The notes beneath the pieces are model-generated. The model was not told where the DNA came from and ran no database searches. It saw nothing but the letters and a program-made list of their open reading frames with translations. Both the position numbers and the translations under genes were made by a program. Shown here piece after piece: positions 3,317 to 30,242 of a stretch of DNA of 64,000 nt. The DNA comes from Alphaproteobacteria bacterium (GTDB lineage Bacteria; Pseudomonadota; Alphaproteobacteria; UBA7879; UBA5542). The DNA is taken from contig JBAWWO010000002.1 of NCBI GenBank assembly GCA_037146715.1, positions 81,417-145,416 of the forward strand. The letters run 5' to 3'. Every line of letters begins with the position of its first letter. The first letter of the stretch is position 1.

Positions 3317-3326
3317 AAGATGAAAA

Positions 3327-3953
3327 ATGATAAGAACTGTCTCTTTTTTTAGTTTGATGTTATTATTTATTTCAACATATGGGGCTCCGTCAGAAAGCAT
3401 TATTAAGAACTGGGCCAATGAAGAATATATGCGCCCTTATTATGGGACTATATCTGAATTTCGAAAACTTATAGAGCAAGCCTCTCCAAAATCTAAAAAT
3501 GGCTTCATAAACCACCCCACGCCAGATTTTGATAATTTTAGATCCCCAAAATATTTATTTCTAGAGATCGCAAAAGGAGATTACATTACTGGATTTTTCA
3601 CGCCTTTTGGAAAAATAACTCTTATGCCCAGTGGGGCTCTAGATGATTGGATAGAGTACACACAAAAAATTATGAGCCAAGCAGCCAATCAATGGGAATT
3701 AGTTGATGTGACGTCTCATGTTAAGTGGTACGAGTTTTCTGGCGGCAAAGATGGGGAATCTATGCAAAAACCAGTGACTCTTAAGCAAAAAAGTGCAAAA
3801 CTTTTTCTGATAAAATCTTTTAAGGGACATCAATTTATCAAAAGCCCTGACAAAGAATTTCTATTATTTTCTAGCGTATCTCTTTCGGACGAGTGCAGCG
3901 AGAAAGACACGGCTCTATTCCACAAACTTTCTAGTGGCAGGAATTGTTTCTAA
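3327..3953 (+). CDS. hypothetical exported protein
   Basis: 208-aa ORF with a Sec-like signal peptide (MIRTVSFFSLMLLFISTYGAPS). No motif recognised. Looks AT-richer than its neighbours by eye. Confidence 0.5.
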   Translation: MIRTVSFFSLMLLFISTYGAPSESIIKNWANEEYMRPYYGTISEFRKLIEQASPKSKNGFINHPTPDFDNFRSPKYLFLEIAKGDYITGFFTPFGKITLMPSGALDDWIEYTQKIMSQAANQWELVDVTSHVKWYEFSGGKDGESMQKPVTLKQKSAKLFLIKSFKGHQFIKSPDKEFLLFSSVSLSDECSEKDTALFHKLSSGRNCF

Positions 3954-4040
3954 ATCTTCGATCCACGATGGAGCACCACAAAAGATTATGGTTTTTGTAA
4001 AAACCTAGATTTTTGCGTCGAGTACGAGTGAAATAAAGGG

Positions 4041-4083
4041 CGTGGATTCCGACGTGTACATTTGGGTACATGAGGAATCCACG
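4041..4083. repeat. hairpin with perfect 10-bp arms (CGTGGATTCC / GGAATCCACG) downstream of groEL; carries the GGAATCCA motif of the dispersed repeat family
   Basis: Arms lie at 4041-4050 and 4074-4083. The 23-nt loop contains a second small palindrome (TGTACA...GTACA). Confidence 0.7.
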
Positions 4084-4124
4084 AGCTTATAATTTCGCGA
4101 AGTAATCGGCCAAAAGGCTAGGCT

Positions 4125-5786
<1,662 letters not shown>

Positions 5787-5796
5787 TTATTAACAA

Positions 5797-6081
5797 CTAT
5801 ATAATTCCAAAAACATCAGATTCTTTCATGATAAGCAGCTCTTCACCGTCTATCTTGACTTCTGTGCCTGACCATTTTCCAAAAAGAACAGTATCACCCA
5901 CCTTAACTTCCAGGGGGTGCTGTTTGCCGGTTTCATCGCGGGCACCAGCCCCAACAGCCAATACTTTACCTTGAATAGGTTTTTCTTTTACCGTATCGGG
6001 GATAATGATGCCCCCTTTGGTTTTTTCTTCTTGTTCTAAGCGACGCACTAAAATACGATCGTGTAAGGGTTTAAATTTCAT
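5797..6081 (-). CDS. groES: co-chaperonin GroES
   Basis: [14 protein letters not shown] start with AGGAAG Shine-Dalgarno upstream. The longer track ORF (to 6165) would run through the CIRCE operator. Confidence 0.96.
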
Positions 6082-6113
6082 GGTCTTCCTCTTTTTAAAA
6101 GGGTTATTACGAG

Positions 6114-6140
6114 TTAGCACTCTTGTTCTTAGAGTGCTAA
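6114..6140 (-). promoter_or_regulatory. CIRCE operator (HrcA binding site)
   Basis: Perfect TTAGCACTC-N9-GAGTGCTAA inverted repeat, 33 nt upstream of the groES start. Confidence 0.9.
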
Positions 6141-6144
6141 TCTG

Positions 6145-6173
6145 GGTATAAATCAAATTTTTCATCCGGTCAA
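6145..6173 (-). promoter_or_regulatory. sigma-70-like promoter of groES-groEL
   Basis: On the minus strand TTGACC (6173-6168), a 17-nt spacer, then TATACC (6150-6145). The predicted start falls at the edge of CIRCE. Confidence 0.6.
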
Positions 6174-6202
6174 GAGGAGTATATAAGAAAATTAGAATTA
6201 TT

Positions 6203-6259
6203 CCCCACCCTCGTCATTGCGAAGAAATTCGCAGAATTTCTGTGGCAATCCAGCCTCTC
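6203..6259. repeat. copy of a dispersed palindromic repeat module (CGTCATTGC...GCAATCCAGC type)
   Basis: Internal hairpin GAAATTC-GCA-GAATTTC (6224-6240) is flanked by ATTGC/GCAAT. It ends in GCAATCCAGC (6245-6254), which recurs at 12757-12766 and 18596-18605. Confidence 0.6.
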
Positions 6260-6330
6260 TTTTTCCAACTTCAAATTAAAGCAACATTGCCCTCTTGATT
6301 TTTTCTCCATTTTTTTGTTTCATCTGTTCC

Positions 6331-7422
6331 ATGACAAACCCTTATCTGACAGAAACTTTACAACTGATCCGCAGTGAAAATCTGGGGCCGTTGACCTTTC
6401 ATCGGCTGCTCCAGCATTACCCAAATCCAGAAACCATTGTGACTCAGTGGGATGAGATTAAGGGACGGCTTAAGCGCAAAATTACCCTGCCCCCCCTGCC
6501 TCTGATCCACACAGAAATCGATAATACCTTAAAATTTGGGGCCCAGTTCATCACCCTTTTTGACCCCCAGTATCCAGACCTTTTAAAGCAGCTGCCCGAT
6601 GCGCCACCTGTTTTGATTGTAAAGGGGAATCTGGATTTGCTCACCCAAAACACTTTAGGTCTTGTTGGGGCGCGCAATGCCTCAAGTCACAGCTGTCGCC
6701 TTGCTTTTAAGATCGCTGCCACCATGGGAAAAGCCGACTGGGTTGTGGCCTCAGGTTTAGCCCGGGGGATCGATACGGCTGCCCATAAGGGGGCTTTAGA
6801 AACGGGTACCCTTGCGGTGATTGGCGGCGGTATTGACAATGTGTATCCGGAAGAAAACAAAGTGCTCTATGAAAAAATTTCCCAAGAAGGTCTCCTACTA
6901 ACAGAAGTGCCCTATGGAACCACCCCACAAGCCTCTCACTTTCCCCGGCGCAATCGGTTGATTTCTGGCTTGTCTCAAGGGCTGCTGGTGGTTGAGGCCT
7001 CAATCCAGTCCGGGTCCCTGATCACCGCCAACTGCGCCACAGAACAGGGTCGGGAAGTCTTTGCTGTACCGGGTTCCCCCATGGATCCCCGATGCCGGGG
7101 CACCAATTTTTTGCTGAAACAAGGGGCTATTTTAACAGAATCGGCCCAAGATATTTTAAATGTATTGGAAAAAAGATCTATGTTGCACGCCCCCCAGCAA
7201 AGCACACTGTTCGCAGAAGAATCCCCCCTGGAATTTTCCCCAACAGATGTGCAAAACACCTTGCTGACTGTGCTGAATGCCACCCCCTTGTCGGTCCATA
7301 CCTTGATTCAAGAAACCCGCCTGCCCGCTGACAAGCTGTGGCCTCTTTTGCTAGACTTAGAGATGTCTCAAAAGATTGAACGCCATCCGGGGGATTCTTT
7401 TTCGAAGGTTTTTGCATCTTAA
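6331..7422 (+). CDS. dprA: DNA-processing protein DprA (Smf family)
   Basis: LGLVGARNAS...ASGLARGIDTAAHKGAL...FPRRNRLISGLS...VVEA..QSGSLITA..A.EQGREVFAVPG signature. An alternative TTG start lies at 6295. Confidence 0.9.
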   Translation: MTNPYLTETLQLIRSENLGPLTFHRLLQHYPNPETIVTQWDEIKGRLKRKITLPPLPLIHTEIDNTLKFGAQFITLFDPQYPDLLKQLPDAPPVLIVKGNLDLLTQNTLGLVGARNASSHSCRLAFKIAATMGKADWVVASGLARGIDTAAHKGALETGTLAVIGGGIDNVYPEENKVLYEKISQEGLLLTEVPYGTTPQASHFPRRNRLISGLSQGLLVVEASIQSGSLITANCATEQGREVFAVPGSPMDPRCRGTNFLLKQGAILTESAQDILNVLEKRSMLHAPQQSTLFAEESPLEFSPTDVQNTLLTVLNATPLSVHTLIQETRLPADKLWPLLLDLEMSQKIERHPGDSFSKVFAS

Positions 7423-12602: not shown

Positions 12603-12611
12603 AGAAGTATC

Positions 12612-12790
12612 CTTTATTGCATCCCTCGGGCTTGACCCAAGGACTCACGCCTTACTTTCAACACTGGCCGCTCTAACGGGGGTGCGTTCCGCACCCGAGG
12701 GAATCCATTGGAGGCAGGTTTTCCACGTCCTTGCAAGAAGGGCATAGCCTAACGAAGCAATCCAGCTTCCTTTCGTGACCTCGTAAAACC
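12612..12790. repeat. mosaic palindromic repeat element filling the rpsP-rimM intergenic region
   Basis: CCTCGGGCTTGACCCAAGG...CGCCTTACTTT...CTAACGGGGGTGCGTTCCGCACCCGAGGGAATCC aligns with 18460-18555 and with the reverse complement of 48111-48185. GCAATCCAGC lies at 12757-12766. Confidence 0.75.
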
Positions 12791-13372
12791 CTATTCTTTA
12801 TTTTCTTCTTCAGCTGGAGTTTCAACTGATTCAGGTGTTGTCTCTTCTGGGACAACGCTTTCTTCAGCCGGCACTTCTTCTGAAGCACTTTCTTCAACAG
12901 TTTCAGCTTCAACAGAAGCTTCTTCTGGTGCAATCTCTTCTGCTACAGATTCTTCAACAACTGGTTCTGCAGCTGCTTGAGCTGCAGCAGCGGCTTCCGC
13001 TTCAGCAGCATCTTTAGCCGCCTGTTCAGCAGCAGCTTTTCTATCGATATCAGCTTGAACACGTTCCATAGCTTTGCGCTTTGGTTTGTTCTTTTTTGTT
13101 TGTGGTGTCAAAGGCTTCTTTTCCAAAATTCCGGCATTTGCCAAAAACAAGTGAATGCGGTCAGATACTTGCGCGCCTACAGAAAGCCAATGCTTAACAC
13201 GATCTAGCTTCAAAACAACGCGACTAGGGTTTTCTCTGTCCAAGAAAGGATCATGGGAACCCAAGCGTTCGATGTACTTGCCATCACGCGGGTTGCGCTC
13301 GTCCGTCACAACGATGTGATAATAGGGACGCTTTTTTGCCCCTGCGCGAGCCATTCTAATTTTTAGTGCCAT
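12791..13372 (-). CDS. rpsP: 30S ribosomal protein S16 with long acidic Ala/Glu-rich C-terminal extension
   Basis: MALKIRMARAGAKKRPYYHIVV N-terminus. 193 aa, of which roughly the last 100 are low-complexity A/E/V/P. Confidence 0.93.
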   Translation of the reverse strand: MALKIRMARAGAKKRPYYHIVVTDERNPRDGKYIERLGSHDPFLDRENPSRVVLKLDRVKHWLSVGAQVSDRIHLFLANAGILEKKPLTPQTKKNKPKRKAMERVQADIDRKAAAEQAAKDAAEAEAAAAAQAAAEPVVEESVAEEIAPEEASVEAETVEESASEEVPAEESVVPEETTPESVETPAEEENKE

Positions 13373-13386
13373 TTTCTTTTCCTTCT

Positions 13387-14733
13387 TTAGTTAAATAAAT
13401 TCTTTAAACCACTTTGCAAAAATCCCTTTTTGCTCATCTTCTGAACCCTTTTCATCATCTGTAAGGTTCCTTCAAACTGTTTCAAAAGCCGATTCACTTC
13501 TTGCACCGTGGTGCCTGATCCTAAAGCAATTCGCCTTCTCCGAGACCCATTTAAAACCTTATAAAAGCGTCTCTCTTTCGGAGTCATAGATTGGATAATA
13601 GCAATCTGTTTTTTCAGAATTCTATCGTCCACTTGCTGTGACGCCATCTTTTCTTTCAGTCCTCCCATACCGGGAAGCATGTTCAAAAAGCCAGACATTC
13701 CGCCCATCTTCATCATTTGTTGCAGCTGGGCAGCCATATCGTTCAGGTCAAAAGACCCTTTTTCGATCTTCCTGTTTAGCCTTTCTGATTCATCTTTGTC
13801 AATAGTTTCTATTGCTTTTTCTACTAAAGAAACAATATCCCCTTGATCCAAGATGCGTCCAGCCACCCGATCCGGGTGAAAAACTTCAAGGGCATCAACC
13901 TTTTCGCCCACCCCCATGAACTTAATAGAACACCCAGTTACCTGCCGAATGGAAAGAGCCGCCCCACCCCGGGCGTCTCCATCCAACCGGGTCAGAATAA
14001 TACCTGTAAGACTTAATTGGTCTTGAAAGGCTTTTCCAATATTAGCCGCATCTTGCCCCGTCATGGCATCCACCACCAGCAGGGTTTCAATGGGCTTCAC
14101 ATGGCGTTTAACCTGAACAAGCTCGTCCATCAGAGCTTCATCAATGTGCAAACGCCCCGCCGTATCCAGAATCAACACATCATAAGCTTCCAAGCGCGCG
14201 GCCTTGAGGGCCCGTTCCGCGATATCCAGAGGCCCCTGCCCTTTTATAATAGGCAGGCTATGGCCATCAATCGTATGGGCCAACACCTCTAATTGTTCCT
14301 GAGCCGCCGGACGATAAACGTCTAAGGACGCCATCAAAACTTTTTTCTTCAGCTTGTCTTTTATATATTTAGCCAGCTTGGCTGAGGAGGTTGTTTTACC
14401 AGACCCCTGCAACCCCACCATCATAATGATCGCTGGCGGCGTGGTGGCCAAGTTCAGCTCTGTCGTTTCAGAACCCAGAACCTCAACCAATTCATCATGC
14501 ACAATTTTGGTGACAAGGTGGGCAGGCGACACACTTTCCACCACCTTTTGCCCAATGGCTTTTTCCTTAACTTTTTCAATAAAATTTTTAACAACGGGCA
14601 AAGCCACGTCGGCTTCTAGCAAAGCAATCCTGATTTCCCGCAGGGCTGTGGTCACATCTTGTTCCGTTAGGGCTCCCTGCCGGCCCAGCCCCTTAAGAAC
14701 GTTGGTGAGTTTTTCTGATAGACTTTGGAACAT
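13387..14733 (-). CDS. ffh: signal recognition particle protein Ffh
   Basis: GLQGSGKTT, DTAGR and LTRLDGDARGGAAL GTPase motifs, plus a Met-rich M domain. Confidence 0.97.
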   Translation of the reverse strand: MFQSLSEKLTNVLKGLGRQGALTEQDVTTALREIRIALLEADVALPVVKNFIEKVKEKAIGQKVVESVSPAHLVTKIVHDELVEVLGSETTELNLATTPPAIIMMVGLQGSGKTTSSAKLAKYIKDKLKKKVLMASLDVYRPAAQEQLEVLAHTIDGHSLPIIKGQGPLDIAERALKAARLEAYDVLILDTAGRLHIDEALMDELVQVKRHVKPIETLLVVDAMTGQDAANIGKAFQDQLSLTGIILTRLDGDARGGAALSIRQVTGCSIKFMGVGEKVDALEVFHPDRVAGRILDQGDIVSLVEKAIETIDKDESERLNRKIEKGSFDLNDMAAQLQQMMKMGGMSGFLNMLPGMGGLKEKMASQQVDDRILKKQIAIIQSMTPKERRFYKVLNGSRRRRIALGSGTTVQEVNRLLKQFEGTLQMMKRVQKMSKKGFLQSGLKNLFN

Positions 14734-14924
14734 TATTCTTGAACTTCTTTCACGCAGCCATCAGTGAATTGAACCGTCTGTTCAATAGGAGATTCATAAC
14801 ATAAAGATTTAAGCCCTGATCCCTTATGACTGCCATCACAGAAAGGATAGTTGGCGCTTTTCTCACAGGTGCAGAAAAAATATTTTTTTCCGGCCTCAAT
14901 TTTTACAATAGATTCTAATTTCAT
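14733..14924 (-). CDS. CDGSH iron-sulfur domain protein
   Basis: Contains CTCEKSANYPFCDGSH, which fits C-x-C-x2-S-x3-P-x-C-D-G-S-H. Its TAA stop overlaps the ffh ATG (TAATG). The start is taken at MKLESIV. Confidence 0.75.
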   Translation of the reverse strand: MKLESIVKIEAGKKYFFCTCEKSANYPFCDGSHKGSGLKSLCYESPIEQTVQFTDGCVKEVQE

Positions 14925-14974
14925 GATTATGAAACATACTCTATAGTCATCCCATGATTCAACATTTTTGTGAA
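14912..14974 (+). repeat. left copy of a 63-bp direct repeat (promoter region plus first 7 codons, MIQHFCE)
   Basis: 62 of 63 nt are identical to 16044-16106 by manual alignment. Confidence 0.9.
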
Positions 14975-14986
14975 AAAGCAAATATC

Positions 14987-15958
14987 ATGATAAAAACAAA
15001 ATCTAGTTTAGTTGTATACCAATCTAAGAATGGCGCTTTAGAGTTAAAAACAGACTCTCAATATAATACGATTTGGTTAACTCAAGAGCAACTTGCGTCT
15101 TTATTTGACGTGCAGCGTCAGGCGATTTCAAAGCATCTAGGAAATATTTTTTCTTCAGGAGAACTAAACGAAAATTCAGTGTGTTCCAAAATGGAACATA
15201 CTGCCAAAGATGGAAAAACATATAAAGTAAACCACTACAATCTTGATGCAGCACTTAGTGTTGGGTATCGGGTGAATTCAAAAAGCGCTACACATTTTCG
15301 CCAATGGGCGACCAAAACCCTAAGAAACCATATTGTTGAAGGATATACTATCAACCGCGATCGTATCAAAGAAAATTATGAACAATTCATGAAAGCAATC
15401 GCAGATGTTAAAAGTTTGCTCCCTTCTGCTTCACCTGTTGATAATGTGAGTATTTTAGAGCTTATTAGTCTGTTTGCTGATACCTGGATATCATTAGATG
15501 CCTATGATAGAGATCAACTTTCTATAACAGGAATCACTAAGAAAAAAGTTTCATTAACATCTGATAAACTTGATAAGGCTTTGCAAAAACTAAAGTATGC
15601 TTTGGTTCAAAAAGGTGAAGCGACAGAATTGTTTGGTGCCGAACGAACAAAGAATTCTATCGAAGGAATAGTTGGCAATGTAATGCAGAGCGTTGGAGAT
15701 CAAGATGTGTATCCTAGCATAGAAGAAAAAGCAGCACATCTGCTCTACTTCATTGTTAAAAATCACCCATTCTTGGATGGAAATAAAAGATCTGGAGCCT
15801 ATGCATTTATATGGTTCTTACAACAAGCTAAGGTTTTAGATAGATCTCGCATAACGCCCCCAGCGCTCACTGCCTTAACTTTATTGATCGCACAAAGTGA
15901 TGCCAAGGATAAAAATAAAATGGTTGCATTGGTGTGCACTACCCTATCAAAAAAGTAG
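14987..15958 (+). CDS. RhuM-family N-terminal domain fused to a Doc-type Fic domain (death-on-curing-like toxin)
   Basis: The N-terminal part (VVYQSKNGALELK...IWLTQEQLASLFDV.RQAISKHL...GYRVNS..ATHFRQWAT) is RhuM-like. The C-terminal HPFLDGNKR (15764-15790) is the Doc variant of the Fic motif. An upstream in-frame ATG at 14954 lies in the duplicated esterase 5-prime end. Confidence 0.85.
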   Translation: MIKTKSSLVVYQSKNGALELKTDSQYNTIWLTQEQLASLFDVQRQAISKHLGNIFSSGELNENSVCSKMEHTAKDGKTYKVNHYNLDAALSVGYRVNSKSATHFRQWATKTLRNHIVEGYTINRDRIKENYEQFMKAIADVKSLLPSASPVDNVSILELISLFADTWISLDAYDRDQLSITGITKKKVSLTSDKLDKALQKLKYALVQKGEATELFGAERTKNSIEGIVGNVMQSVGDQDVYPSIEEKAAHLLYFIVKNHPFLDGNKRSGAYAFIWFLQQAKVLDRSRITPPALTALTLLIAQSDAKDKNKMVALVCTTLSKK

Positions 15959-16000
15959 CGTAAATTTCCCGCCCATATTTGGTTATACAAGAGGTCTACT

Positions 16001-16056
16001 GTTGGTAAGTTTTTCTGATATACTTTGAAACATTATTCATAATATTCTGATTTCAT
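16001..16056 (-). pseudogene. relic of the ffh 5-prime end (11 codons, MFQSISEKLTN) plus a collapsed 7-codon remnant of the CDGSH gene
   Basis: 16001-16038 matches 14701-14738 with 4 or 5 mismatches by my manual count. 16033-16056 reads ATG AAA TCA GAA TAT TAT GAA TAA, which keeps the start and the ...E-stop/TAATG junction of the intact CDGSH gene. Confidence 0.8.
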
Positions 16057-16106
16057 GATTATGAAACATACTCTATAGTCATCCCATGATTCAACATTTT
16101 TGTGAA
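16044..16106 (+). repeat. right copy of the 63-bp direct repeat
   Basis: See 14912-14974. Confidence 0.9.
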
Positions 16107-16715
16107 GTTGCCAGTAAGGGCCCTGTAAAACACCTGGTTTTTATTCTGCATGGCTATGGGGCCAGCGCGGAAAATATTATGGGACTTGGGGAGTATTGGA
16201 AATCGTTCGTTCCCACCACCCTGTTCATTGCCCCTAATGCGCCTGAGTTTGTAGCCTCCGTCTATGGCTTTCAGTGGTTTCCTATTGGAAATTTAGAAGA
16301 GTCTTTGTTAACCGCCGGCTGTAAAAAAGCGGCTCCAAGTTTGGCCACTTTTATAAAACAGATGCAGGAAAAGCATCAAGTTTCTTGGCAGAATACTTGT
16401 ATCGTTGGATTTTCCCAAGGGGCCATGTTGGTCTTATATACAGCCCTTACCCAGCCCCATCTATGCAGCAAAGTCATTGGCTATTCGGGGGGAGTCCCCA
16501 TGGATCCGAAAGACATTACAAGCTCACCCAAGGACTTAGACATTCTATTGGTTCATGGAGCGCAAGATGATGTAGTTCCTGCAACGGCTTCAAAAGACGC
16601 GAATATAATGTTAAAAACCGCCGGGTTCCCCGTATCTCTGCATCTACTTCCCCATCTAGACCATTCAATTGATGAGCGAGGTCTAAAATTGGGGCAAGAG
16701 TTTTTTGGAAGATAA
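16086..16715 (+). CDS. phospholipase/carboxylesterase-family alpha/beta hydrolase
   Basis: LVFILHGYGASAEN, nucleophile elbow GFSQGAM, and HGAQDDVVP followed by a C-terminal His. Confidence 0.85.
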   Translation: MIQHFCEVASKGPVKHLVFILHGYGASAENIMGLGEYWKSFVPTTLFIAPNAPEFVASVYGFQWFPIGNLEESLLTAGCKKAAPSLATFIKQMQEKHQVSWQNTCIVGFSQGAMLVLYTALTQPHLCSKVIGYSGGVPMDPKDITSSPKDLDILLVHGAQDDVVPATASKDANIMLKTAGFPVSLHLLPHLDHSIDERGLKLGQEFFGR

Positions 16716-16792
16716 CTACCGCCACCCTCAAGCCTCATAGGGGCGAAGGGTCTATCTCTGCGCCCCCAGCACTCGGATCACAAGAAAAAATT

Positions 16793-17434
16793 ATGTATAT
16801 TATAGGTGAGGCTGAAAAGTCTCAGTATCCAGAAGCCTCCATTACAGATACGATGATCCATCGTTGGATGGGTATAGCAACTGTAGCCATTAATGCAAAT
16901 GCGTGTGGAGCAAGTAAAATTCTTGTCACATCAGGTGCTAGGATACACTGGGAGACGGATTATGACTTGCTTTTTTCAGCTCAAGAAATTCAAATCGATG
17001 GAAGTATTTATCATCAGAATGGACTAAGTTCTTTAAGATTTCTGCTAACTTCGGGCCCTAAGTGGAGCACGGGAACTAAAGCAAAAATTGGCCAACATGC
17101 GCGCATAGACTTTGGCTCAGGAGACTATGGTCCAGGAAGCAAAAGATTTTTTCACATAATATCTAAAGATGGGGCACCCCCCACCATTGAAGAGGGTGCA
17201 ATTTTGAAGGATAACAAAATTGATGAACATGAGATGAAGTATGATTTTCCTTTGCTTTCTTTGACGGCCGACCCCAAAGATCCTGTTATACAGACTATGC
17301 TGCGTAATACCGGCGATATAGATAGCACTACCCCATTCAGTATAACGAAAACCTATTATAACAGCTGGGCTGAATCACTTAAACCTGTAGACACTGAGAA
17401 ATCCTCTAGTTGCAACTTCGGCTGCCCCGTTTAG
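16793..17434 (+). CDS. hypothetical protein
   Basis: 213-aa ORF with no signal peptide, no obvious Shine-Dalgarno and no motif recognised. Confidence 0.4.
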   Translation: MYIIGEAEKSQYPEASITDTMIHRWMGIATVAINANACGASKILVTSGARIHWETDYDLLFSAQEIQIDGSIYHQNGLSSLRFLLTSGPKWSTGTKAKIGQHARIDFGSGDYGPGSKRFFHIISKDGAPPTIEEGAILKDNKIDEHEMKYDFPLLSLTADPKDPVIQTMLRNTGDIDSTTPFSITKTYYNSWAESLKPVDTEKSSSCNFGCPV

Positions 17435-17513
17435 TGTTTAGTTCGCAATAGGGTGTCTTGCCACGCTCATCAGAAACAGTAGACTTCTATTCCGGCTGTG
17501 CTAGAATGAAAAC

Positions 17514-18338
17514 ATGCACAAAAAACCATACGTCATTGTTTTAGGGAATGAGAAGGGGGGAACGGGCAAGTCCACCACGGCCATGCACGTTGTTGCCTCT
17601 CTTTTACACATGGGTTTTAAGGTCGCCAGTATTGATATTGACGCCCGCCAGGGAACCCTTAGCCGCTATTTTGATAATCGTCGCAACTATATTGATCGCA
17701 CCAAAATCAAGCTGCCCATTTCTGAGCATTTTCGCCTGACCCGCTCTGATGATGATTCCAGCAAAAAAGCGCATGAGGAAGACAAAGTCAAATTCGAAGA
17801 TCTTATGAGCTCTTTAAAGGATTATGATTTTATCGTTATAGACACCCCTGGGCACGACCTGTATTTGTCGCGCCTGGCGCACTCGTATGCGGATACGTTG
17901 ATCACCCCTTTAAATGACAGTTTTGTTGATTTAGACGTTTTGGTTCAACTGAATTCTGAATCTATGAGCATGGAAAAGCCCAGCATTTATGCAGATTGGG
18001 TATGGGAACAGAAAAAGCATCGGGCTGTGCGAGACCGAGGAAGTATTGACTGGATTGTTCTGCGAAATCGCTTATCCTCAATCAATGCTCACAATAAACA
18101 AAGAATGGAAACTGTTTTATCTACCCTTTCAAAAAGGCTGGCCTTCCGCACCACCAAGGGTTTCAGCGAGCGCGTGATCTTCCGTGAATTGTTTTTGCAG
18201 GGGTTAACCCTTTTGGATTTAAAAGCCGTGGGAATGCCGATGCAGATTTCCCACGTGGCCGCCCGTCATGAACTGCGGGATCTGATGAGCTTCCTAAATC
18301 TTCCCACCATCGAAAACCGCGTCGCAGAAAAGTTTTAG
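17514..18338 (+). CDS. mipZ: division-plane positioning ATPase MipZ (ParA superfamily)
   Basis: VLGNEKGGTGKST deviant Walker A, IDIDARQGTLSRYFDNRR, IDTPG and WIVLRNRL align along the full length with Caulobacter MipZ as I remember it. Confidence 0.85.
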   Translation: MHKKPYVIVLGNEKGGTGKSTTAMHVVASLLHMGFKVASIDIDARQGTLSRYFDNRRNYIDRTKIKLPISEHFRLTRSDDDSSKKAHEEDKVKFEDLMSSLKDYDFIVIDTPGHDLYLSRLAHSYADTLITPLNDSFVDLDVLVQLNSESMSMEKPSIYADWVWEQKKHRAVRDRGSIDWIVLRNRLSSINAHNKQRMETVLSTLSKRLAFRTTKGFSERVIFRELFLQGLTLLDLKAVGMPMQISHVAARHELRDLMSFLNLPTIENRVAEKF

Positions 18339-18612
18339 CGAAGAAAACTGGATTGCCACGCCCATCATTCTTCAGCCCTCTCTTATTGCTTTCTTCAGGC
18401 TCTCTTTTTTTGAATTCCTCATCCCCCCTTGCTTTCCTCGGGCTCTCTTTTTTTGCTTTCCTCGGGCTTGACCCGAGGACCCACGCCTTACTTTTTCTGA
18501 CAACCTAACGGGCCTGCGTTCCGCACCCTTAGACCCTCGGGTCAAGCCCGAGGGAATCCAATTGGGGTGAGTCCGGCTCTCGTCATCCAGAGGAAGCAAT
18601 CCAGCTTTCTTT
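18339..18612. repeat. largest mosaic palindromic repeat array in the window
   Basis: Perfect hairpin CCTCGGG-CTTGA-CCCGAGG lies at 18460-18478. 18460-18528 matches the reverse complement of 48117-48185 with 3 mismatches over 69 nt. A second copy of the hairpin (CCTCGGGTCAAGCCCGAGG) lies at 18534-18552. GCAATCCAGC is at 18596-18605. Confidence 0.8.
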
Positions 18613-23123: not shown

Positions 23124-24281
23124 TTACTTTTGTCCCACCTTAGTTTTCGTCCACATCCGTGTCAACTCTCTTTCGAAGCTTAAAGTTAAAACTTCATTAA
23201 TTCTAAAGTTTTCAAAGACCATTTTGGGATAAAGGAGGGGATTATTTCGTAAGGACGGGGGTAAATGCTTCAAAGCAGCATCATTAGCAATGGGGGACAA
23301 AAGATATTTAATATTTCTGGCTGCAATATCTCCCCTCATCATAAAGTCTAAAAACTTGTAGGCATTTTCCAGATGGGGCGCCCCACGGGGAATCACAAAT
23401 AAATCACACCAAAAACCTTGATACTCTTTGGGGATAAAGAACTCTAGCTGAACAGGTTTTCTGGAAGATTTGGCTTCAACCTGGGCCCGCAACGCTTCCC
23501 CAGACCAAGTCTGCATCAAACAAACTTCCCCATTCACCAAATCATTAATCATGCGTCCCGCATTAGCTGTGAAATTTTTAACATGGGGACGCATTTTTTT
23601 TAAGATTTTACGGGCTGTTTCAATTTGAGAAAAATCCCCATAATTCGGCTGAATTCCTTTGTAGTACAAAACGGATTCCACTAAATCTTGGGGGTAATCA
23701 AGCAGGGTTACCCCACACTTGGAAAGTTTTTTGATTTGTTCTTCGTCATAAACAAAAGACAAACTATCCGGCGGCAGTTTTTGATAAGGGAAAATCTTTT
23801 TTATCTTGTTGGCGTCATAAGCAAACCCTGTCACCCCCCAAGTAAAGGGAATGCCATAGGCATTGTCTTCATCTAACGCTTCCAAAAGACTTAGAATTGT
23901 TTCATCTAAATTGCCCCAGTTCTTCAACTTAGATTTATCAAGGGGTGTGAAAATTTTATCTTTTAGCAAAACCTGTCGGCCGAAGTAAGGGGTTGCCGAT
24001 GGCATTACAATATCGTACCCGGATTTTCCAGTAAGTAATTTGGCTTCTAAAATTTCATCACTTTCATAATAATCCATATGGACAGTGATGCCCGTTTCTT
24101 TTTCAAAATCTTTGATAGTTTCTGGATCAAAGGTATGCATCCAGGTATAAATCAAAAGCACCTTTTCTTTTTTTTCAGAATCAGCAAAGGGATTATAGAA
24201 AACAATTAAAACTAAAAGAGCTCCTATCAAAAGGCTCCAAAGGAAGAGGACGGGTTTTTTCACTATTCTTGGATGCTCCAT
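23124..24281 (-). CDS. PotD/PotF-like periplasmic polyamine-binding protein homologue with N-terminal membrane anchor
   Basis: Solute-binding family 1 pattern (VLLIYTWMHTFDPETIKDFEKETGITV...YDIVMPS...). The N-terminus KKPVLFLWSLLIGALLVLIVFY looks like an uncleaved TM anchor. The ATG overlaps the tssA 3-prime end by 19 nt. Confidence 0.8.
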   Translation of the reverse strand: MEHPRIVKKPVLFLWSLLIGALLVLIVFYNPFADSEKKEKVLLIYTWMHTFDPETIKDFEKETGITVHMDYYESDEILEAKLLTGKSGYDIVMPSATPYFGRQVLLKDKIFTPLDKSKLKNWGNLDETILSLLEALDEDNAYGIPFTWGVTGFAYDANKIKKIFPYQKLPPDSLSFVYDEEQIKKLSKCGVTLLDYPQDLVESVLYYKGIQPNYGDFSQIETARKILKKMRPHVKNFTANAGRMINDLVNGEVCLMQTWSGEALRAQVEAKSSRKPVQLEFFIPKEYQGFWCDLFVIPRGAPHLENAYKFLDFMMRGDIAARNIKYLLSPIANDAALKHLPPSLRNNPLLYPKMVFENFRINEVLTLSFERELTRMWTKTKVGQK

Positions 24282-25414
24282 AGGGGTTTAGCTGGTTCTT
24301 TAGAAGCATTCGAAGAAGCTGCATTTATAACCTGGTTATTTCCTAAGGGAGCATTGCCGGCAACGCCCAGAAGGCGACGAAGATCCGTCAGCGCATTGCC
24401 ATCGGCCACCATTTCTTTCAGCAAGTCCTCAAAGGGCAAGTTCCCCCACCTAACTGCCCGCTTAATCAAATAGGGGGCGGGACTATGGGGATCTAGTTGT
24501 GATAAATACTCAGCAGCCTTTTCTATCATGGCATAGGCCTCGGCCCGACCGTGAATCACATCATCCAGGGATGAAGGTTTATCCGCAGATACAGGCTCTA
24601 ATTGGATTGTTTCCGTTGTTTTTTTAGCATTTTCTTTTGCTTGCTCTTCTGCACGGCGCTCTGTCAAAATCATTTCCAAATACTGATTAAATTGATCCAG
24701 TTTCTCCTGAATTCTATACAATGATGGGCTTGATTTTTCCAGTTTTTGATCTAAAAAAGTTTGTAAAGTTTTGATTGTTTCTTTTGTTTGATCCACAGAT
24801 TCTTTAAACTGAGCAAAAAAAGCTGTGTCTGTTTTTTTAACACTTGCCTTTAAATCTAGTGCTTTCTTTTCACGACTGACCTGATTGGCTGCATTCGGAG
24901 CTACCTTTGTATCCGTTGTATAATGGGTATCGATATAGGCAGAAAAACTATAGACTAAAGTATCCTTATCGGTTGGGGCTGTGATGATAATTCTGTTCAA
25001 GTATTCCGATAGTTTTTCATTGATCCAATTAAAGGGTCCCACCCGATATTCCAGATCATCTGGGCCAATAGCGGGGTAAGCAATATCCCAATATTTTTCA
25101 GAAAGTTTCAGCAAAAGTTCAAACCCCTTTTGCAAACCTTCTATATTGTATAGAAACATCCAAGACCGAATCAACCACGAAGCAATCTGCAAGTCTTTTG
25201 ACTGGTCTGTCAGAATACCAGTGCACAGGGTTTCAACCTTTTTCCAGTCAGCGGTTTTCAAATCCTTAACCCAAACGCCTTGGGGCAGGTCTAAATCTTC
25301 GCGAGATGCCTCTTGAATATCATCATAGATCACATCATATTTCAGATCTTTTCCTTGGGGATCTTTCCCCGGAATATCTTTTAAATAGACATTAAGATCA
25401 TCAATGGGGTTCAT
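24263..25414 (-). CDS. tssA: type VI secretion protein TssA (ImpA N-terminal domain)
   Basis: GKDLKYDVIYDDIQEA...LPQGVW...ADWKKVETLC..IL...SKDLQIASWL matches ImpA_N. ATGA overlap with the tssM stop. Confidence 0.8.
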   Translation of the reverse strand: MNPIDDLNVYLKDIPGKDPQGKDLKYDVIYDDIQEASREDLDLPQGVWVKDLKTADWKKVETLCTGILTDQSKDLQIASWLIRSWMFLYNIEGLQKGFELLLKLSEKYWDIAYPAIGPDDLEYRVGPFNWINEKLSEYLNRIIITAPTDKDTLVYSFSAYIDTHYTTDTKVAPNAANQVSREKKALDLKASVKKTDTAFFAQFKESVDQTKETIKTLQTFLDQKLEKSSPSLYRIQEKLDQFNQYLEMILTERRAEEQAKENAKKTTETIQLEPVSADKPSSLDDVIHGRAEAYAMIEKAAEYLSQLDPHSPAPYLIKRAVRWGNLPFEDLLKEMVADGNALTDLRRLLGVAGNAPLGNNQVINAASSNASKEPAKPLWSIQE

Positions 25415-28400
25415 AGAACTCCTTCCCGTAAGACTGGCGCAGAAGTGGGGAATTTGGGAATCTTGAAATCAATTGCTGTTGTGCCCATGGTATCAACAGG
25501 CACAACCTGTACATACAATTTAGCATTTGTAGCTGCTGGCCCATTCGGGGCAGGCGCCAGTGGAATTGTAAATCCAAGGGTGACATCGTTAATAGAGGAC
25601 CCGCCATCTTTTGCAGACACCAGATGAAGCATCATAGCCCTTAGCAGTGCCCAAGTGCCGTCATAGACAAAAAGACTTCTTTTTTCCATGGGGATCAGGG
25701 CCGGATCTCTGGGATCTTTTGTCGCAAAAACAGGAAAATTGGGCATCCATTCAAAACCAAAGGATATGGGGGTGCCCAGTTCATAGCGAATGGTGTTAGC
25801 ATTCCCATTTTCTTTTAAGCTTAATACTTTATCATTGTTAATAAATGCCCAGTCAGCCAAGCGATCCGCCAGCAAAGATTTAGCCTTGTTTTCGTTAAAT
25901 TTAAGGATAAAGCTAAGACCAGGGGCACCATCTTTTTTAATAGGGGCAAAGTATTTATCAAAGAAAGTTTTGATCTCACGCATGTTGGCCATAAATTGCT
26001 TAGAGTGAGACCAAAAATGTCCAGGTTTTGCAACAGCATCAATTGATGCAATAACATCAGGGGTTAACAAGTCTAGCTCTTTAAAGAAACCATTCAGAAC
26101 ATCATATGACACATCTGAATCTGAATTAGGATCTTTTGAAACAATAGCAACGAAGGGGAATGAATTCGCTAAGTTTGCATTGAAATAATCAGAGACTTTT
26201 TTATACTGGGCAATCCCCTTTTCAGCGGCTAACTGCTGACACCTTTTATACATACTCTTCATGATTAAGTTGCGTTTTTGCAGGAAGAAATCTCCTGTAG
26301 GGGCATTCATAACAGCTGGATCTAACAGGGTAAAACAGTTGTCGTAGGTAATTTTATTGCCATCTTCTTCCAAGAATTTTTCCAGTACTTTCATGGACCC
26401 TGTTGTTTTGCCCTTGTCATAGGCCGCTGCTTCATCAAGCAATCCGCCCCACCGGGTTACAACCTTAATTTGATCAATGGAAAGCCGGAAAGAATCTGAC
26501 TTCAGAAAACTTACAACAGGCGATGCGTGCCGCAAAGCTAAACTCATCACTCGGGCGCTCTGATTGGTGAAATAGCTGATCATTTCTGTTTGATCAGAAA
26601 GATTATAGGCGCCCAAAAGTCCATTGGCTTCCCCATTCCACCGTTTGAAATCAGGATCAACCGGTTCATAGAAATCACTATTTGTTAGGGCCTGATCTAT
26701 TGTTTCGAGGCTACTGTACATTTGGGTGAATAATAAGCTCTTAAGTCGTGCATAGGTGGCGCGCGCGCCAATATCATCTAACGTCTTCAAAAGCTTTACA
26801 AACAAGGGTCCTGTTTCGCTAATGTTATTGGCTTGCACCTGAGATGCATTGTCAGCCTGACTCCCCCAATTTTGGGAGGGGACTTCATAAAAAGTTTGGG
26901 CCCGTTCCAACATAACTTCAATATTAGTCTGAAGTTGCTCTTGTCCAACCAGCCGCAAGACATCCTGCAAATTAACAGGATAAGAAGAAAGATCCATCTC
27001 AACAAAGGTTCGGTAATTTTCAATTAAGGCCAACGCATTTCGAACGCTATTCGGGTCCCAATACAAAAATTGTCCATCGGGAATTCTGTCAATAAACTTA
27101 CTGCCTGATGCTTTTTGCATAAAAGGTTGATCCAGGAAAGTATTTAGCCCTTTTTCTAGTTTTAATAGCCCCTCAGAGGGAGTCAAAGAATTAGTAGCTG
27201 AAGACCAGGTTAAGAAATACCCAGTTAAAGGAGACCCATAACTTCTTAAATAGGTGGCTGATTTTTGATAAAGCTTTTCTGCAGTGTCAGAAATTTTTCT
27301 ATAAACTGGCTCAGTAAAAATAGGAATACTTTTTATGGTATCCATCAATTTTTGATATCTGGAACCCGGGTCAAAGACTGGGTTTGTAAGCCATCTTCCC
27401 CCCGCATTGGTAATGAATGACAGAACATCTTTTATTTCTACCAAGCTGTTTCGGAAACTATCCAAATCCGGCACACCACGCCCTTCAACTCTCTCTAAAG
27501 TTTTTTGCAATTTATAGATCAGGGCTGCGTTATATTCGGGATCAAGAACACGTTTCAAGAAATTGTTATACAGTTCATAGAGTCTTTTTTCAGCAAACAA
27601 ATTATAACGATCCAGATAAAAAGGCTTACAAGAACTATCAGAAATCAATCCCTGCAGAAAAGTTTCACTAGAAGGTGTCAAAGATTTTTTAAGATTGTAT
27701 CCGTCATACAAATAGGCCGTGAATTGGGCGAACAAATCTATCTTCTTCATGAAAGCCTGGGCATTATAGTCAATGGTCATTGTATGTAGCTTTTGTAAGG
27801 CCTTTACGTATCCTTCTAGCAGTAAAAATTCCGGCGTTTCCGTGGGGCTTAAAACTGTTTTTTTGTCCAGGGGCATGGATGGCATGGCAAGGGGCGTTAT
27901 CAAAAGACGTTGGGCCTTTATGTCCAGGTTGCTGGCTATACGATCCCCGATAAATTTGTCATAGAAAAACTGGCAAATTTCTTTCAGATTATAATCTGCA
28001 ACAAGGGCCCAGGTGGGGATGTAAGTTCGCGTATTTCCAACTTGGACTATAAGATCTAAAATGCTTTGAGCCTGGGAAATATTTTCAACCCCTTGGCTGG
28101 TAGAATTTAAGTTTTCAAGGGAATGGAGCACATTCACCATAGATGGCTTCAGTTGATCAACAGCATTCGATACATTTTTTTGGACCCAGTAAGTTCCTAA
28201 GAAACCCAAAACAAGGGTAGAAAAAATGCCAACACGCCCGATATTTAAAGTACGGTTAGCAGAAAGCAAAAATCTTTTAAAGGGCGCAGCAACACCCACT
28301 TCCTGAAAAATCTTTTTGTCAAAAAGATCCTTTAAAAACAGATGAGAAAATTCTGATGAGCCAGGCACTTCTTCCTGTTGCCCGGTCGCATAAATTCCTC

Positions 28401-30235: not shown

Positions 30236-30242
30236 GGATTAC

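Follow-up and report, generated by a model that had tools for sequence, protein, structure and literature searches.

An uncultured freshwater alphaproteobacterium carries a foreign DNA fragment with a RhuM-Doc gene, fixed between two copies of one of its own gene junctions, namely that between the ffh-CDGSH operon and a divergent esterase gene. We are highly confident that this insertion is real. The full account given below, i.e., the structure together with promoter capture and an origin in two steps, is on balance considered probable, and the specific two-step route itself is put forward tentatively. The event is of a known kind, if an unusual case of it, and does not amount to a new system.

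A host gene junction is duplicated around a RhuM-Doc gene

The locus lies in a stretch of 64,000 nucleotides (the window; GenBank contig JBAWWO010000002.1) and comprises the following features, with L001 and L002 denoting two related metagenomic contigs:

13387–14733, minus strand: ffh, SRP54-type GTPase, intact (Pfam SRP54, SRP_SPB, SRP54_N); collinear with L001 and L002
14701–14974, no strand: left, complete junction copy (ffh codons 1–11, CDGSH, 29-bp spacer, esterase codons 1–7; repeat families D1 and D2); collinear with L001 304–577
14733–14924, minus strand: CDGSH iron-sulfur protein gene, 63 aa, intact (Pfam zf-CDGSH); stop overlaps the ffh start (TAATG); 95% DNA identity to L001
14954–14974, plus strand: spare esterase start MIQHFCE, fused in frame to the inserted ORF; ORF 14954–15958 is open and in frame with the ATG at 14987, 33 nt downstream
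14975–16000, plus strand: foreign insert, 1,026 bp (12 bp of donor leader, RhuM-Doc ORF, 42-bp 3′ flank); absent from L001 and L002
14987–15958, plus strand: RhuM N-domain plus Fic/DOC protein, 323 aa from the native start (Pfam PF13310, PF02661; PADLOC PDC-S23)
16001–16106, no strand: right, collapsed junction copy, 106 bp; runs on into the intact esterase gene
16001–16033, minus strand: ffh′ relic, first 11 codons (MFQSISEKLTN); dead end against the insert
16001–16004, plus strand: GTTG at the joint of insert and right copy; the same 4 bp at 16107–16110 (esterase codon 8), next to the junction in the ancestral sequence
16033–16056, minus strand: CDGSH relic, 7 codons (MKSEYYE, stop); remnant of a 168-bp in-frame internal deletion
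16086–16715, plus strand: esterase, Abhydrolase_2 (phospholipase/carboxylesterase; Pfam), intact; its orthologues P0121 (88%) and P0122 (57%) directly adjoin CDGSH

The left copy of the junction measures 274 bp and the right one 106 bp; thus, 168 bp (56 codons) are missing from the latter. At the esterase end, the copies share a core repeat identical at 62 of 63 positions (14912–14974 versus 16044–16106; self-BLAST E = 2.5e-26), the sole mismatch being A at 14917 and G at 16049. At the ffh end, 35 of 38 positions are identical (14701–14738 versus 16001–16038; mismatches at 14707, 14721, and 14728; self-BLAST E = 4e-9), and the translated right copy reads MFQSISEKLTN where native Ffh begins with MFQSLSEKLTN. 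On the minus strand, 16033–16056 (ATGAAATCAGAATATTATGAATAA) translates into MKSEYYE followed by a stop, a relic of CDGSH in which the start of the gene and its TAATG overlap with ffh′ survive; the first four codons of the relic (atgaaatcagaa) are those with which CDGSH starts in L001. MIQHFCE is the start common to the ORF at 14954 and the esterase ORF at 16086. The original prediction had already named the 62/63 repeat with its shared MIQHFCE, the 11-codon ffh repeat and the 7-codon CDGSH collapse with TAATG, all of which were borne out by base comparison. Its wider claims, that the entire ffh-5′/CDGSH/intergenic/esterase-5′ junction had been duplicated around ∼1 kb of RhuM-Doc sequence and that the second copy of CDGSH derives from the gene by internal deletion, are supported as well. 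A 14-nt inverted repeat (15990–16003 and 17475–17488) was dismissed as being at chance level.

The surroundings are housekeeping genes (rpsP-ffh ... mipZ), among which RhuM-Doc is solitary. From what is generally known of the SRP, ffh is expected to be essential. The esterase gene diverges from the CDGSH-ffh operon over a spacer of 29 bp. As had been stated from the sequence at the outset, no integrase or transposase was found, here among the Pfam-scanned ORFs within ∼10 kb; the ORFs scanned between ∼6 and 25 kb gave housekeeping genes, T6SS genes, DprA, and nothing else. Rfam returned three tRNAs for the whole window and no match at the junction. The DprA gene is located at 6295–7422; DprA alone is no proof of natural competence.

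The insertion is supported by independent sequencing runs and by empty sites

The insertion form agrees with the contigs of eight independent sequencing runs. In six of these runs, a junction is covered, and an assembly artefact is thus unlikely. The left insert junction is crossed by a unitig of run X5 (14813–15227) that reaches unique sequence on both sides of the repeat; the right one is crossed in X2 (15800–16303), X3 (15961–16355), X4 (15868–16118), and X7 (15878–16129), and is also covered in X6. The structure could in principle reflect a mixed population or chimeric threading of an empty site and a separate molecule through a 57-bp repeat. It is true that the de Bruijn graph of X1 breaks at this 57-bp exact repeat (the repeat unitig has a depth of 36 versus 13–15 in its neighbours), and that the topology of X1 alone is compatible both with integration and with an empty site accompanied by a circle. 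However, other runs have unitigs that span the repeat and are anchored in unique sequence at either end, depths are equal (flank 13.7, insert 15, esterase 12.6), and neither an empty-site joint nor a circle joint occurs in the contigs of the eight runs; these are Logan contigs, from which rare variants are dropped, so that a minority excised or circular form could escape. The artefact, for which the insertion structure had been flagged to be checked, is therefore hardly credible.

The claim that RhuM-Doc is an insertion was tested at the orthologous locus and held: the uninterrupted arrangement ffh-CDGSH/esterase-mipZ is present in both L001 and L002, the esterases of which are 88% and 57% identical, respectively, to that of the window. 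The last 50 bp of the right copy (16057–16106) are identical to L001 528–577 (50/50). Nowhere in the locus is conservation higher than at the junction, which is 50/50 identical to L001 in both copies; identity to L001 is 86–92% in esterase, ffh, and mipZ and 95% in CDGSH; such a gradient could stem from a recombination tract or from functional constraint. A perfect empty site would also result if the two copies recombined with each other; the direction of the event thus cannot be read from empty sites alone, and RhuM-Doc might be ancestral and have been lost precisely, via the repeats, in the lineages of L001 and L002. Such a history would require two independent losses, one of them in the distant L002 lineage. 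It is further opposed by the closest homologues of the insert, which are at most 79% identical and reside in unrelated contexts (one adjoins a Legionella_OMP gene), by the lower GC of the insert and by its leader, a truncated version of that of the donors. We regard an ancestral RhuM-Doc as very improbable.

The insert is a truncated fragment with a candidate toxin gene

The inserted ORF matches PF13310 (RhuM-type; E = 1.1e-22, 81 bits versus a cut-off of 33.7; residues 75–144 of the 334-aa ORF) and PF02661 (Fic/DOC; E = 5.4e-12), as well as, over its full length, PDLC04965, the profile of PDC-S23 (E = 3.2e-109; residues 4–322 on profile positions 3–325 of 327). The ORF contains the Doc-type motif HPFLDGNKR (HxFxDGNKR; KNHPFLDGNKRSG), across which the Doc structure 9vzc of the PDB aligns to the protein; TIGR01550 (DOC_P1) scored 34 bits, under its cut-off of 38.65 bits. 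The RhuM-Doc protein is thus a candidate abortive-infection/defence toxin. PDC-S23 is a candidate system in PADLOC, and a literature search returned no paper with an assay of toxic or anti-phage activity for it.

Homologues are abundant (7,998 of 8,000 scored candidates at E ≤ 1e-5), with a top identity of 79% among those scored. They are 318–353 aa long, mostly 320–332, and cover 87–97%, mostly 94–97%, of the 334-aa ORF; from these lengths and coverages, the native start of RhuM-Doc follows as the ATG at 14987. By this measure, MIQHFCEKANI is an in-frame extension from the duplicated esterase start and not the native N-terminus. The proposal that the RhuM-Doc ORF can begin with MIQHFCE is consequently right as far as the reading frame is concerned but, given the lengths of the homologues, not for the native start.

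A leader and promoter present in the donors L003, L005, L074, and L078 are cut off in the insert, the ends of which fall inside conserved donor sequence, leaving 12 bp of leader ahead of the ATG and 42 bp of trailer. The flanks in L003, L005, L074, L077, and L078 are unlike one another. Judged by its ends, the insert is not a defined cassette but part of a larger donor unit, truncated and without a promoter. The 42-bp 3′ flank resembles the donors' trailer; it was also considered, and rejected, as a relic of the esterase-mipZ spacer (local alignments scored 17–23, with shuffled sequences reaching 19 at the 95th percentile and 29 at most). No terminal inverted repeats were found at 14975 or 16000, nor in the 42-bp flank. 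With regard to base composition, for which a comparison of insert and flanks had been suggested, the insert is indeed lower in GC (0.36, GC3 0.29) than its flanks (0.45–0.47), but does not leave the range spanned by other genes of the window. Searches for exact matches to the esterase or to the 334-aa ORF came up empty; metagenome and genome scans with the protein gave homologues of at most 68% identity and no allele of the insertion; plasmid and phage collections held family members of <60% identity over the full length, among which no vector was identified.

The duplicated junction may provide the insert with a promoter

The spacer of 29 bp is very short, and the control region of each gene must therefore lie in or beside the other, which means that duplication of the junction would preserve control of both sides. 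In the left copy, CDGSH-ffh would retain its upstream 50 bp, and in the right copy, the esterase would retain its upstream 85 bp and its start. The spare esterase promoter and start codon of the left copy would now drive RhuM-Doc, and the product would either carry an N-terminal fusion of 11 residues or be translated from its own ATG 33 nt downstream. No plus-strand terminator-like site was predicted between 14954 and 16086, so that RhuM-Doc and the esterase gene may be co-transcribed. A consensus promoter scan gave 6 sites versus 4.6 expected from shuffled sequence; as the count was no higher than in shuffled sequence, no promoter is claimed from it. Metatranscriptomes from the same samples had zero coverage of the organism, even of groEL.

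The duplication may have originated in two steps

The insert is positioned at codon 7/8 of the conserved esterase gene. The presence of GTTG at 16001–16004 and again at 16107–16110 (in L001, it occupies 578–581) suggests that the duplication was preceded by a simple-insertion allele and came about, as a later step, with participation of an uninterrupted allele; GTTG being 4 bp only (∼0.4% by chance at a fixed position), coincidence is possible. The route that we propose, plausible if short of probable, would have begun with the illegitimate insertion of a fragment X between esterase codons 7 and 8 (...GTGAA-X-GTTGCC...). The end of X would then have been joined, at the GTTG microhomology, to ffh codon 11 (GTTGGT) of an uninterrupted allele, and resolution by homologous exchange in the esterase would have restored that gene and created the 274-bp duplication. 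A Campbell-type step, as put forward in the original prediction and here taking the form of integration of a circle excised via GTTG, would be one of two ways to this duplication, the other being homology-facilitated illegitimate recombination of taken-up DNA. Finally, a 168-bp deletion in the redundant CDGSH copy would have shortened the flanking repeat. Neither intermediate allele was found, i.e., neither the simple insertion (...TCTACT-GTTGCCAG...) nor a right copy in which the second CDGSH is still complete.

Other origins were weighed against this route. A single repair or replication event might have joined the foreign fragment and re-copied the 274-bp target, either by fill-in of a staggered break or by a nascent strand switching template to foreign DNA and then back 274 bp behind, with the CDGSH deletion following later. 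This needs the fewest events for the staggered breakpoints, the left one (esterase codon 7) being further to the right than the right one (ffh codon 11), and is consistent with the varying length of junction duplications elsewhere (27–63 bp), as expected for a non-enzymatic, variable process. The identity of GTTG with esterase codon 8 would then be coincidence, and we know of no established bacterial mechanism for target duplications of 274 bp; we therefore think a one-step origin unlikely, if worth keeping in mind. Even less likely is a decayed or trans-mobilized site-specific islet, in which the copies would be attL and attR at the esterase 5′ end, a replacement promoter and 5′ end would have been carried along, and the integrase would have been lost or would act in trans. 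A precedent for such an islet is provided by L005, where a 76% identical homologue and a DUF6602 gene form a 2.1-kb islet that lacks an integrase and has at its borders a perfect 56-bp repeat of the 3′ half of tRNA-Leu, and the near-perfect 63-bp repeat of the window has an att-like length. The direct border repeats (62/63 and 35/38) are present, though with two host-gene relics that an att core does not need: instead of an element-specific arm, the right copy holds an ffh′ fragment of the same lineage (35/38) and the CDGSH relic. Element-specific shared ends and an integrase (in the ORFs scanned within ∼10 kb) are both absent, the ends lack inverted repeats, and they cut through the donors' leader and trailer, matching no conserved element termini. 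The reverse order, a tandem 274-bp duplication via GTTG into which the foreign fragment landed later, is more improbable still. A GTTG microhomology is expected at the joint of a tandem duplication, and in L026 (see below), the RhuM-Doc ORF interrupts the spare duplicated 5′ copy of its target gene; here, however, the insert would have had to land between GAA and GTTG, one in ∼300 positions unless the events were coupled. The earlier proposal of duplication then replacement is disfavoured in the same way, as the insert would need to land exactly on the duplication joint.

The locus resembles, and departs from, several known systems

The structure fits a Campbell product in that a contiguous host segment is directly duplicated around the insert and the site is empty in relatives. 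As in a Campbell single crossover by suicide plasmids or circular intermediates, the host segment is found on both sides and the genes at the ends are intact. However, the locus has no vector or replicon, and no recombinase among the nearby ORFs scanned, the inserted DNA amounts to a truncated gene fragment of 1 kb, one copy is internally deleted, and formation of the circle would need a prior illegitimate event at GTTG. Homology-facilitated illegitimate recombination occurs during natural transformation in Acinetobacter baylyi and Streptococcus pneumoniae; shared with it are one end made by homology (esterase), another by 3–10-bp microhomology (GTTG), and the lack of mobile-element machinery. 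Classically, foreign DNA is added and recipient sequence deleted, whereas here the wild-type allele would have been taken up and a duplication would have resulted. Integrative elements of the SXT/R391 family rebuild the 5′ end of their target gene, prfC. They likewise insert in the first codons and leave the gene functional through a copy of promoter and 5′ end beyond the insert, but the locus has no integrase, att core, or element-specific arms, and the rebuilt 5′ end is the host's own, accompanied by ffh and CDGSH relics. A transposon or IS does not fit, as there is no transposase, there are no terminal inverted repeats, and the duplication amounts to 274 bp. With integron cassettes, the insert has in common that an ORF-sized, promoterless unit would be expressed from a resident upstream promoter; it differs in lacking attC (the 3′ flank has 42 bp only), attI, and IntI, and its boundaries vary between loci.

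RhuM/Fic-DOC proteins are found in type I R-M operons and defence islands (Anantharaman et al, 2013; PMC3710099). The gene of the window is of the same family and architecture, and L049 represents the classic hsdM-RhuM-Doc-hsdS setting, but in the window, the gene stands alone among housekeeping genes without an R-M partner. Duplication at microhomologies can switch on transferred genes that lack a promoter (Zhang et al, 2024; PMC11111574). There, as would be the case here, a microhomology-mediated duplication puts a host promoter before a promoterless foreign gene, although it is the foreign gene that is tandemly amplified, whereas here, it is single-copy and the host junction is duplicated.

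Similar junctions at other RhuM-Doc loci

The search for other RhuM-Doc loci flanked by host-junction duplications, suggested together with the original prediction, turned up L026 and L049. In L026, RhuM-Doc is fused to the first nine codons of an ABC ATPase gene, the 5′ region of which is duplicated downstream; this locus also holds a second cassette, and the 5′ end occurs there a third time. In L049, the insertion lies ∼10 codons into a GxxExxY ORF, where the stop of hsdM and the start of this ORF overlap, and the junction duplication at this hsdM/GxxExxY overlap is 40 bp. The flanking repeat of L019 was rejected as a junction duplication (a paralogous protein domain in two neighbouring genes), as were those of L062/L025 and L057 (a lineage-specific hairpin motif between cassettes in Paceibacterota). 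Overall, flanking repeats were observed for 5 of 49 RhuM-Doc genes versus 3 of 183 neighbouring genes, a modest contrast, and ∼90% of RhuM-Doc loci are without them.

That RhuM-Doc (PDC-S23), and perhaps other promoterless defence or toxin ORFs, repeatedly enter compact genomes via the first codons of expressed host genes, capturing promoter and start while the host gene is rescued by the junction duplication, is a speculative generalization of which we are doubtful. Its signature may be a 5′ end, the cassette, and a further 5′ end with the gene, and may iterate into small arrays; three loci display it (the window at esterase codon 7, L026, and L049). To our knowledge, such a recombinase-free route of gene domestication has not been described as a class.

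The locus is a natural example of a foreign, promoterless toxin/defence gene installed beside ffh, in a bidirectional control region of 29 bp, without mobile-element machinery and with both neighbours undamaged. The duplicated junction serves as an adaptor: one copy for the old genes and a spare copy that would express the newcomer. If the recurrence in L026 and L049 were general, one could search genomes for junction duplications around solitary defence genes as a footprint of recent gene acquisition without a recombinase, and such duplications would help explain orphan defence genes outside defence islands.

A duplicated ffh–CDGSH–esterase junction brackets the RhuM-Doc gene

The region 13,000–17,500 was read directly and searched for repeats. 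Its genes (assigned by Pfam) and repeat families are listed here; rpsP, rimM and trmD lie upstream of ffh.

13387–14733, minus strand: ffh
14733–14924, minus strand: CDGSH protein, 63 aa
14954/14987–15958, plus strand: RhuM + Fic/DOC protein (RhuM-Doc)
16086–16715, plus strand: esterase (Abhydrolase_2)
17514–18338: MipZ
14901–14974 and 16033–16106: repeat family D1, direct
14701–14748 and 16001–16048: repeat family D2, direct

The repeat search thus placed two direct-repeat families around ORF 14954–15958. The D1 core (14912–14974 versus 16044–16106) matches at 62 of 63 positions, the sole mismatch being A at 14917 versus G at 16049, and the first 38 bp of D2 match at 35. Self-BLAST returned both segments (E = 2.5e-26 for D1 and 4e-9 for D2), and no further comparable repeat pair was found near the junction when the 64-kb window was searched. 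Read on the minus strand, the right copy begins with ffh codons 1–11 (MFQSISEKLTN; native, MFQSLSEKLTN) at 16001–16033, followed at 16033–16056 by a seven-codon ORF, MKSEYYE* (ATGAAATCAGAATATTATGAATAA). This relic of CDGSH retains the ATG of that gene and the TAATG at which its stop overlaps the ffh start; its first four codons are those found in the related metagenomic contig L001. Of the two copies, the left spans 274 bp and the right 106 bp; 168 bp (56 codons) of CDGSH are absent from the latter, and 1,026 bp (14975–16000) lie between the two. The original prediction had described the near-perfect repeat, the repeated ffh start and the collapsed CDGSH gene; its factual statements all hold, and the feature was described correctly.

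Related metagenomic contigs carry an uninterrupted site

The nearest esterase homologue (P0121, 88% identity) is encoded on L001, a 2-kb contig with the order ffh-5′/CDGSH/esterase/mipZ, in which nothing separates CDGSH from the esterase gene. In a second related contig (L002; esterase 57% identical), the order is rplS-trmD-rimM-rpsP-ffh-CDGSH|esterase-mipZ. L001 aligns collinearly with the left copy up to esterase codon 7 and with the right copy from ffh codon 11 on, apart from the CDGSH deletion. As judged from these alignments, RhuM-Doc at this locus is an insertion.

No part of the locus is better conserved than the junction: between the CDGSH start and esterase codon 7 (14925–14974 = 16057–16106), both copies match L001 at 50 of 50 positions, compared with 95% identity for CDGSH, 92% for ffh and mipZ, and 86% for the esterase gene. 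About 25 bp (CCATGATTCAACATTTTTGTGAAGT) are also identical in L002 (7980–8020), despite the esterase identity of 57%. This stretch forms an imperfect palindrome (TTCAaCA..TGTGAA), which suggests a candidate regulatory site overlapping the esterase start.

The esterase-mipZ spacer (16716–17477) also differs in the window, spanning ∼760 bp versus ∼150 bp of unrelated sequence in L001 and ∼50 bp in L002. It contains a 213-aa ORF (16793–17434) with no Pfam, NCBIfam or PADLOC match, and homology to L001 resumes at 17472 (CAGAAAyAGTAGACTTCTATTCC). By this comparison, the spacer is a second lineage-specific insertion or replacement, one that lacks flanking repeats.

The arrangement is present in independent metagenomes

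Logan contigs from eight independent runs of several studies match the window at 100% where they overlap it. In run X1, the assembly graph breaks at an exact 57-bp repeat; the depth of the repeat is 36, that of the left flank 13.7, of the insert 15 and of the esterase gene 12.6. A contig of X5 (14813–15227) starts in unique CDGSH sequence and reaches the insert by way of the repeat, and the right junction is crossed from insert through repeat to esterase in X2 (15800–16303), X3 (15961–16355), X4 (15868–16118) and X7 (15878–16129); a contig of X6 (15983–16106) starts in the insert and stops where the right copy ends. An assembly artefact was rejected because contigs of independent runs cross both junctions. 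No contig of the eight runs joins 14974 to 16107, although a rare excised form could escape contigs. The insertion is real and fixed in the sampled populations.

The runs with matching sequence are freshwater and lake metagenomes, and GroEL is at most 71–77% identical to that of named alphaproteobacteria, with metagenomic relatives reaching 88%. The host is thus an uncultured freshwater alphaproteobacterium. Elsewhere in the window, rpsP (12791–13372) encodes a 193-aa protein that is extended at its C terminus by a long Ala/Glu-rich stretch (residues ∼100–193; the L002 orthologue has 180 aa). An intergenic element, repeated between rimM and rpsP (12610–12696) and after mipZ (18386–18528), carries CTCGGGCTTGACCCrAGGAC as its hairpin core; identity between the sites is 88% over 49 nt and 80% over 87 nt, and a 43-nt tandem pair occupies 18386–18463. 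The element had no Rfam match at either site and looks REP/MITE-like. Type VI secretion genes lie within 24263–31583, including an ImpA_N ORF (24263–25414) and a 1,346-aa ORF (25411–29451) that is a candidate TssM-like protein, guessed from size and position. A minus-strand ORF of 1,941 aa (58135–63960) contains diverged repeats with a period of ∼200–240 nt (10–11 copies detected) and may encode a large surface or adhesin-like protein.

The insert is a truncated fragment around an ordinary RhuM-Doc gene

The RhuM-Doc protein gives a full-length match to PDC-S23, a PADLOC candidate system (E = 3e-109), and carries the Doc-type motif HPFLDGNKR, across which it was aligned to a Doc protein of known structure. 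The literature discusses RhuM-Doc fusions as toxins that reside within R-M loci (PMC3710099). In the homologue search, 7,998 of 8,000 scored candidates reached E ≤ 1e-5, which makes this a family of thousands; the closest among them outside the host genome is 79% identical. The RhuM-Doc protein is an unremarkable representative of this widespread family, and searches of catalogued plasmids and phages turned up no close copy. Homologues measure 318–353 aa (mostly 320–332) and cover 87–97% (mostly 94–97%) of the 334-aa ORF, which indicates that the native start is the ATG at 14987. The 11 residues MIQHFCEKANI are an in-frame extension supplied by the duplicated esterase start.

The closest homologues have upstream sequence of their own: loci L003 and L005 have a common leader (...ACTGTATrTTTAACGAGTAATA..ATG), and L074 and L078 share TTGACC-17-TATATC plus a conserved trailer. 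The window keeps just 12 bp of leader and 42 bp of trailer-like sequence; thus, the insert is a truncated, promoterless fragment without defined ends. Its GC content (0.36; GC3, 0.29) is low compared with its neighbours (0.45–0.47) but inside the spread of window genes, which is supportive of, but not decisive for, foreign origin.

Origin of the arrangement

The breakpoints are staggered: the left one falls at esterase codon 7 and the right one at ffh codon 11, which in ancestral coordinates puts the left breakpoint 274 bp rightward of the other. The right copy starts with GTTGGT, and the ancestral sequence after esterase codon 7 is GTTGCC (window 16107, L001 578). A 4-bp match at a fixed position is expected by chance in ∼0.4% of cases, and GTTG is what a microhomology joint of "insert end | GTTGCC" and "GTTGGT" would leave. 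Such a joint would imply an earlier allele in which the insert lay between esterase codons 7 and 8 as a simple insertion (...GAGGTCTACT|GTTGCCAGTAAGG...). A second event would have involved an uninterrupted allele: either wild-type DNA would have been taken up and joined by homology-facilitated illegitimate recombination, or a circle, excised via the GTTG repeat, would have integrated in the Campbell manner. The 168-bp deletion would have followed, eliminating the redundant CDGSH copy and leaving a shorter flanking repeat. At 6295–7422 lies a DprA gene, by itself no proof of competence.

The microhomology footprint points to this two-step, illegitimate-plus-homologous route, with which a one-step duplicative insertion competes. 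A decayed att-type islet is a further rival; the repeat search detected no terminal inverted repeats on the insert, and none of the ORFs scanned within ∼10 kb is a recombinase gene. Two further alternatives are an ancestral RhuM-Doc gene that the related lineages lost, and a duplication that preceded the insertion. The arrangement can be grouped with recombinase-free genomic islets or with Campbell/HFIR-like products. Over ∼101 bp, the left and right copies differ at four positions, and each differs from L001 at three; the right copy does not resemble the left copy more closely than it does L001, which is compatible with its descent from another allele, or with age and decay. The ffh relic has two right-copy-specific changes, G-to-A and G-to-T, which, together with the CDGSH relic, fit AT-biased drift of non-functional sequence.

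The duplicated junction may serve both neighbours and the insert

Given what is generally understood of SRP, ffh is expected to be essential. CDGSH-ffh and the esterase gene diverge across a spacer of only 29 bp, so the conserved junction would fit a compact bidirectional control region, and an insertion there would separate at least one gene from it. After duplication, the left copy would retain 50 bp upstream of CDGSH, and the right copy the esterase start with the 85 bp preceding it; the second esterase promoter and start codon, in the left copy, would stand in frame directly before the promoterless RhuM-Doc. The duplicated junction could thereby have rescued both neighbours and supplied a promoter. 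A promoter scan scored no better than shuffled sequence, and metatranscriptomes from the sampled sites yielded zero coverage. No plus-strand terminator-like site was found between 14954 and 16086, and read-through into the esterase gene is therefore possible.

Flanking repeats at other RhuM-Doc loci

Most of the ∼75 homologous loci examined have no flanking repeat; several do. In L026, the RhuM-Doc ORF opens with the first nine codons (MQTIDKSEQ) of a downstream ABC-transporter ATPase gene. Positions 2340–4210 of this low-GC contig form an array-like structure: ATPase 5′ end, RhuM-Doc, ATPase 5′ continuation, a 201-aa ORF (taken to be NYN-like, as a candidate only) with terminator hairpin, and the intact ATPase gene with upstream sequence. 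In L049 (Nitrospirales, type I R-M operon), where the hsdM stop overlaps the start of a GxxExxY ORF, RhuM-Doc lies ∼10 codons into the latter; a 40-bp duplication of the junction keeps hsdM and GxxExxY both intact. At 4948–6430 of the same locus, inverted copies of TCCGCAGATGrCGCAGATGrGCGCAGAT bracket the GxxExxY gene, and a third copy, in direct orientation, lies ahead of RhuM-Doc where hsdM ends (three matches versus 0.01 expected).

In L005 (2349–4574), the 3′ half of tRNA-Leu(taa) is duplicated perfectly over 56 bp at the borders of a 2.1-kb islet, which lies upstream of a tRNA-Leu/Cys/Gly cluster; the islet carries a RhuM-Doc gene 76% identical to that of the window and a DUF6602 gene, and no integrase is present in it. 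In L011, the msrB 3′ end is repeated perfectly over 30 bp. The 27-bp hairpin repeat of L057 (4864–4890 and 5973–5999) is part of a lineage-specific inter-cassette motif: in the Paceibacterota loci L062 (= L025; 1870–8900) and L057, a ∼28-nt hairpin motif (ATTCGAACATCCTCCCAAGTCTGGAGCA; five exact-pattern copies in L062) stands between successive small genes including RhuM-Doc, and the arrangement resembles an array of cassettes with a recurring element between the genes. In L078 (a 2.28-Mb genome), a group II intron reverse transcriptase gene (RVT_1 + GIIM; 1701–3077) lies ∼2 kb upstream of the RhuM-Doc homologue.

At a flank-versus-flank alignment score of at least 22, repeats surrounded 5 of 49 RhuM-Doc genes versus 3 of 183 neighbouring genes; one of these three is the L026 co-cassette, and two are in repeat-rich loci. 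The enrichment around RhuM-Doc is suggestive, not strong, and the mechanisms behind the repeats are clearly heterogeneous. What stands out in the window is the mode of installation, a promoterless fragment set into a duplicated bidirectional junction beside ffh without mobile-element machinery; a more remote possibility is that this represents a recurrent mode of defence-gene domestication.
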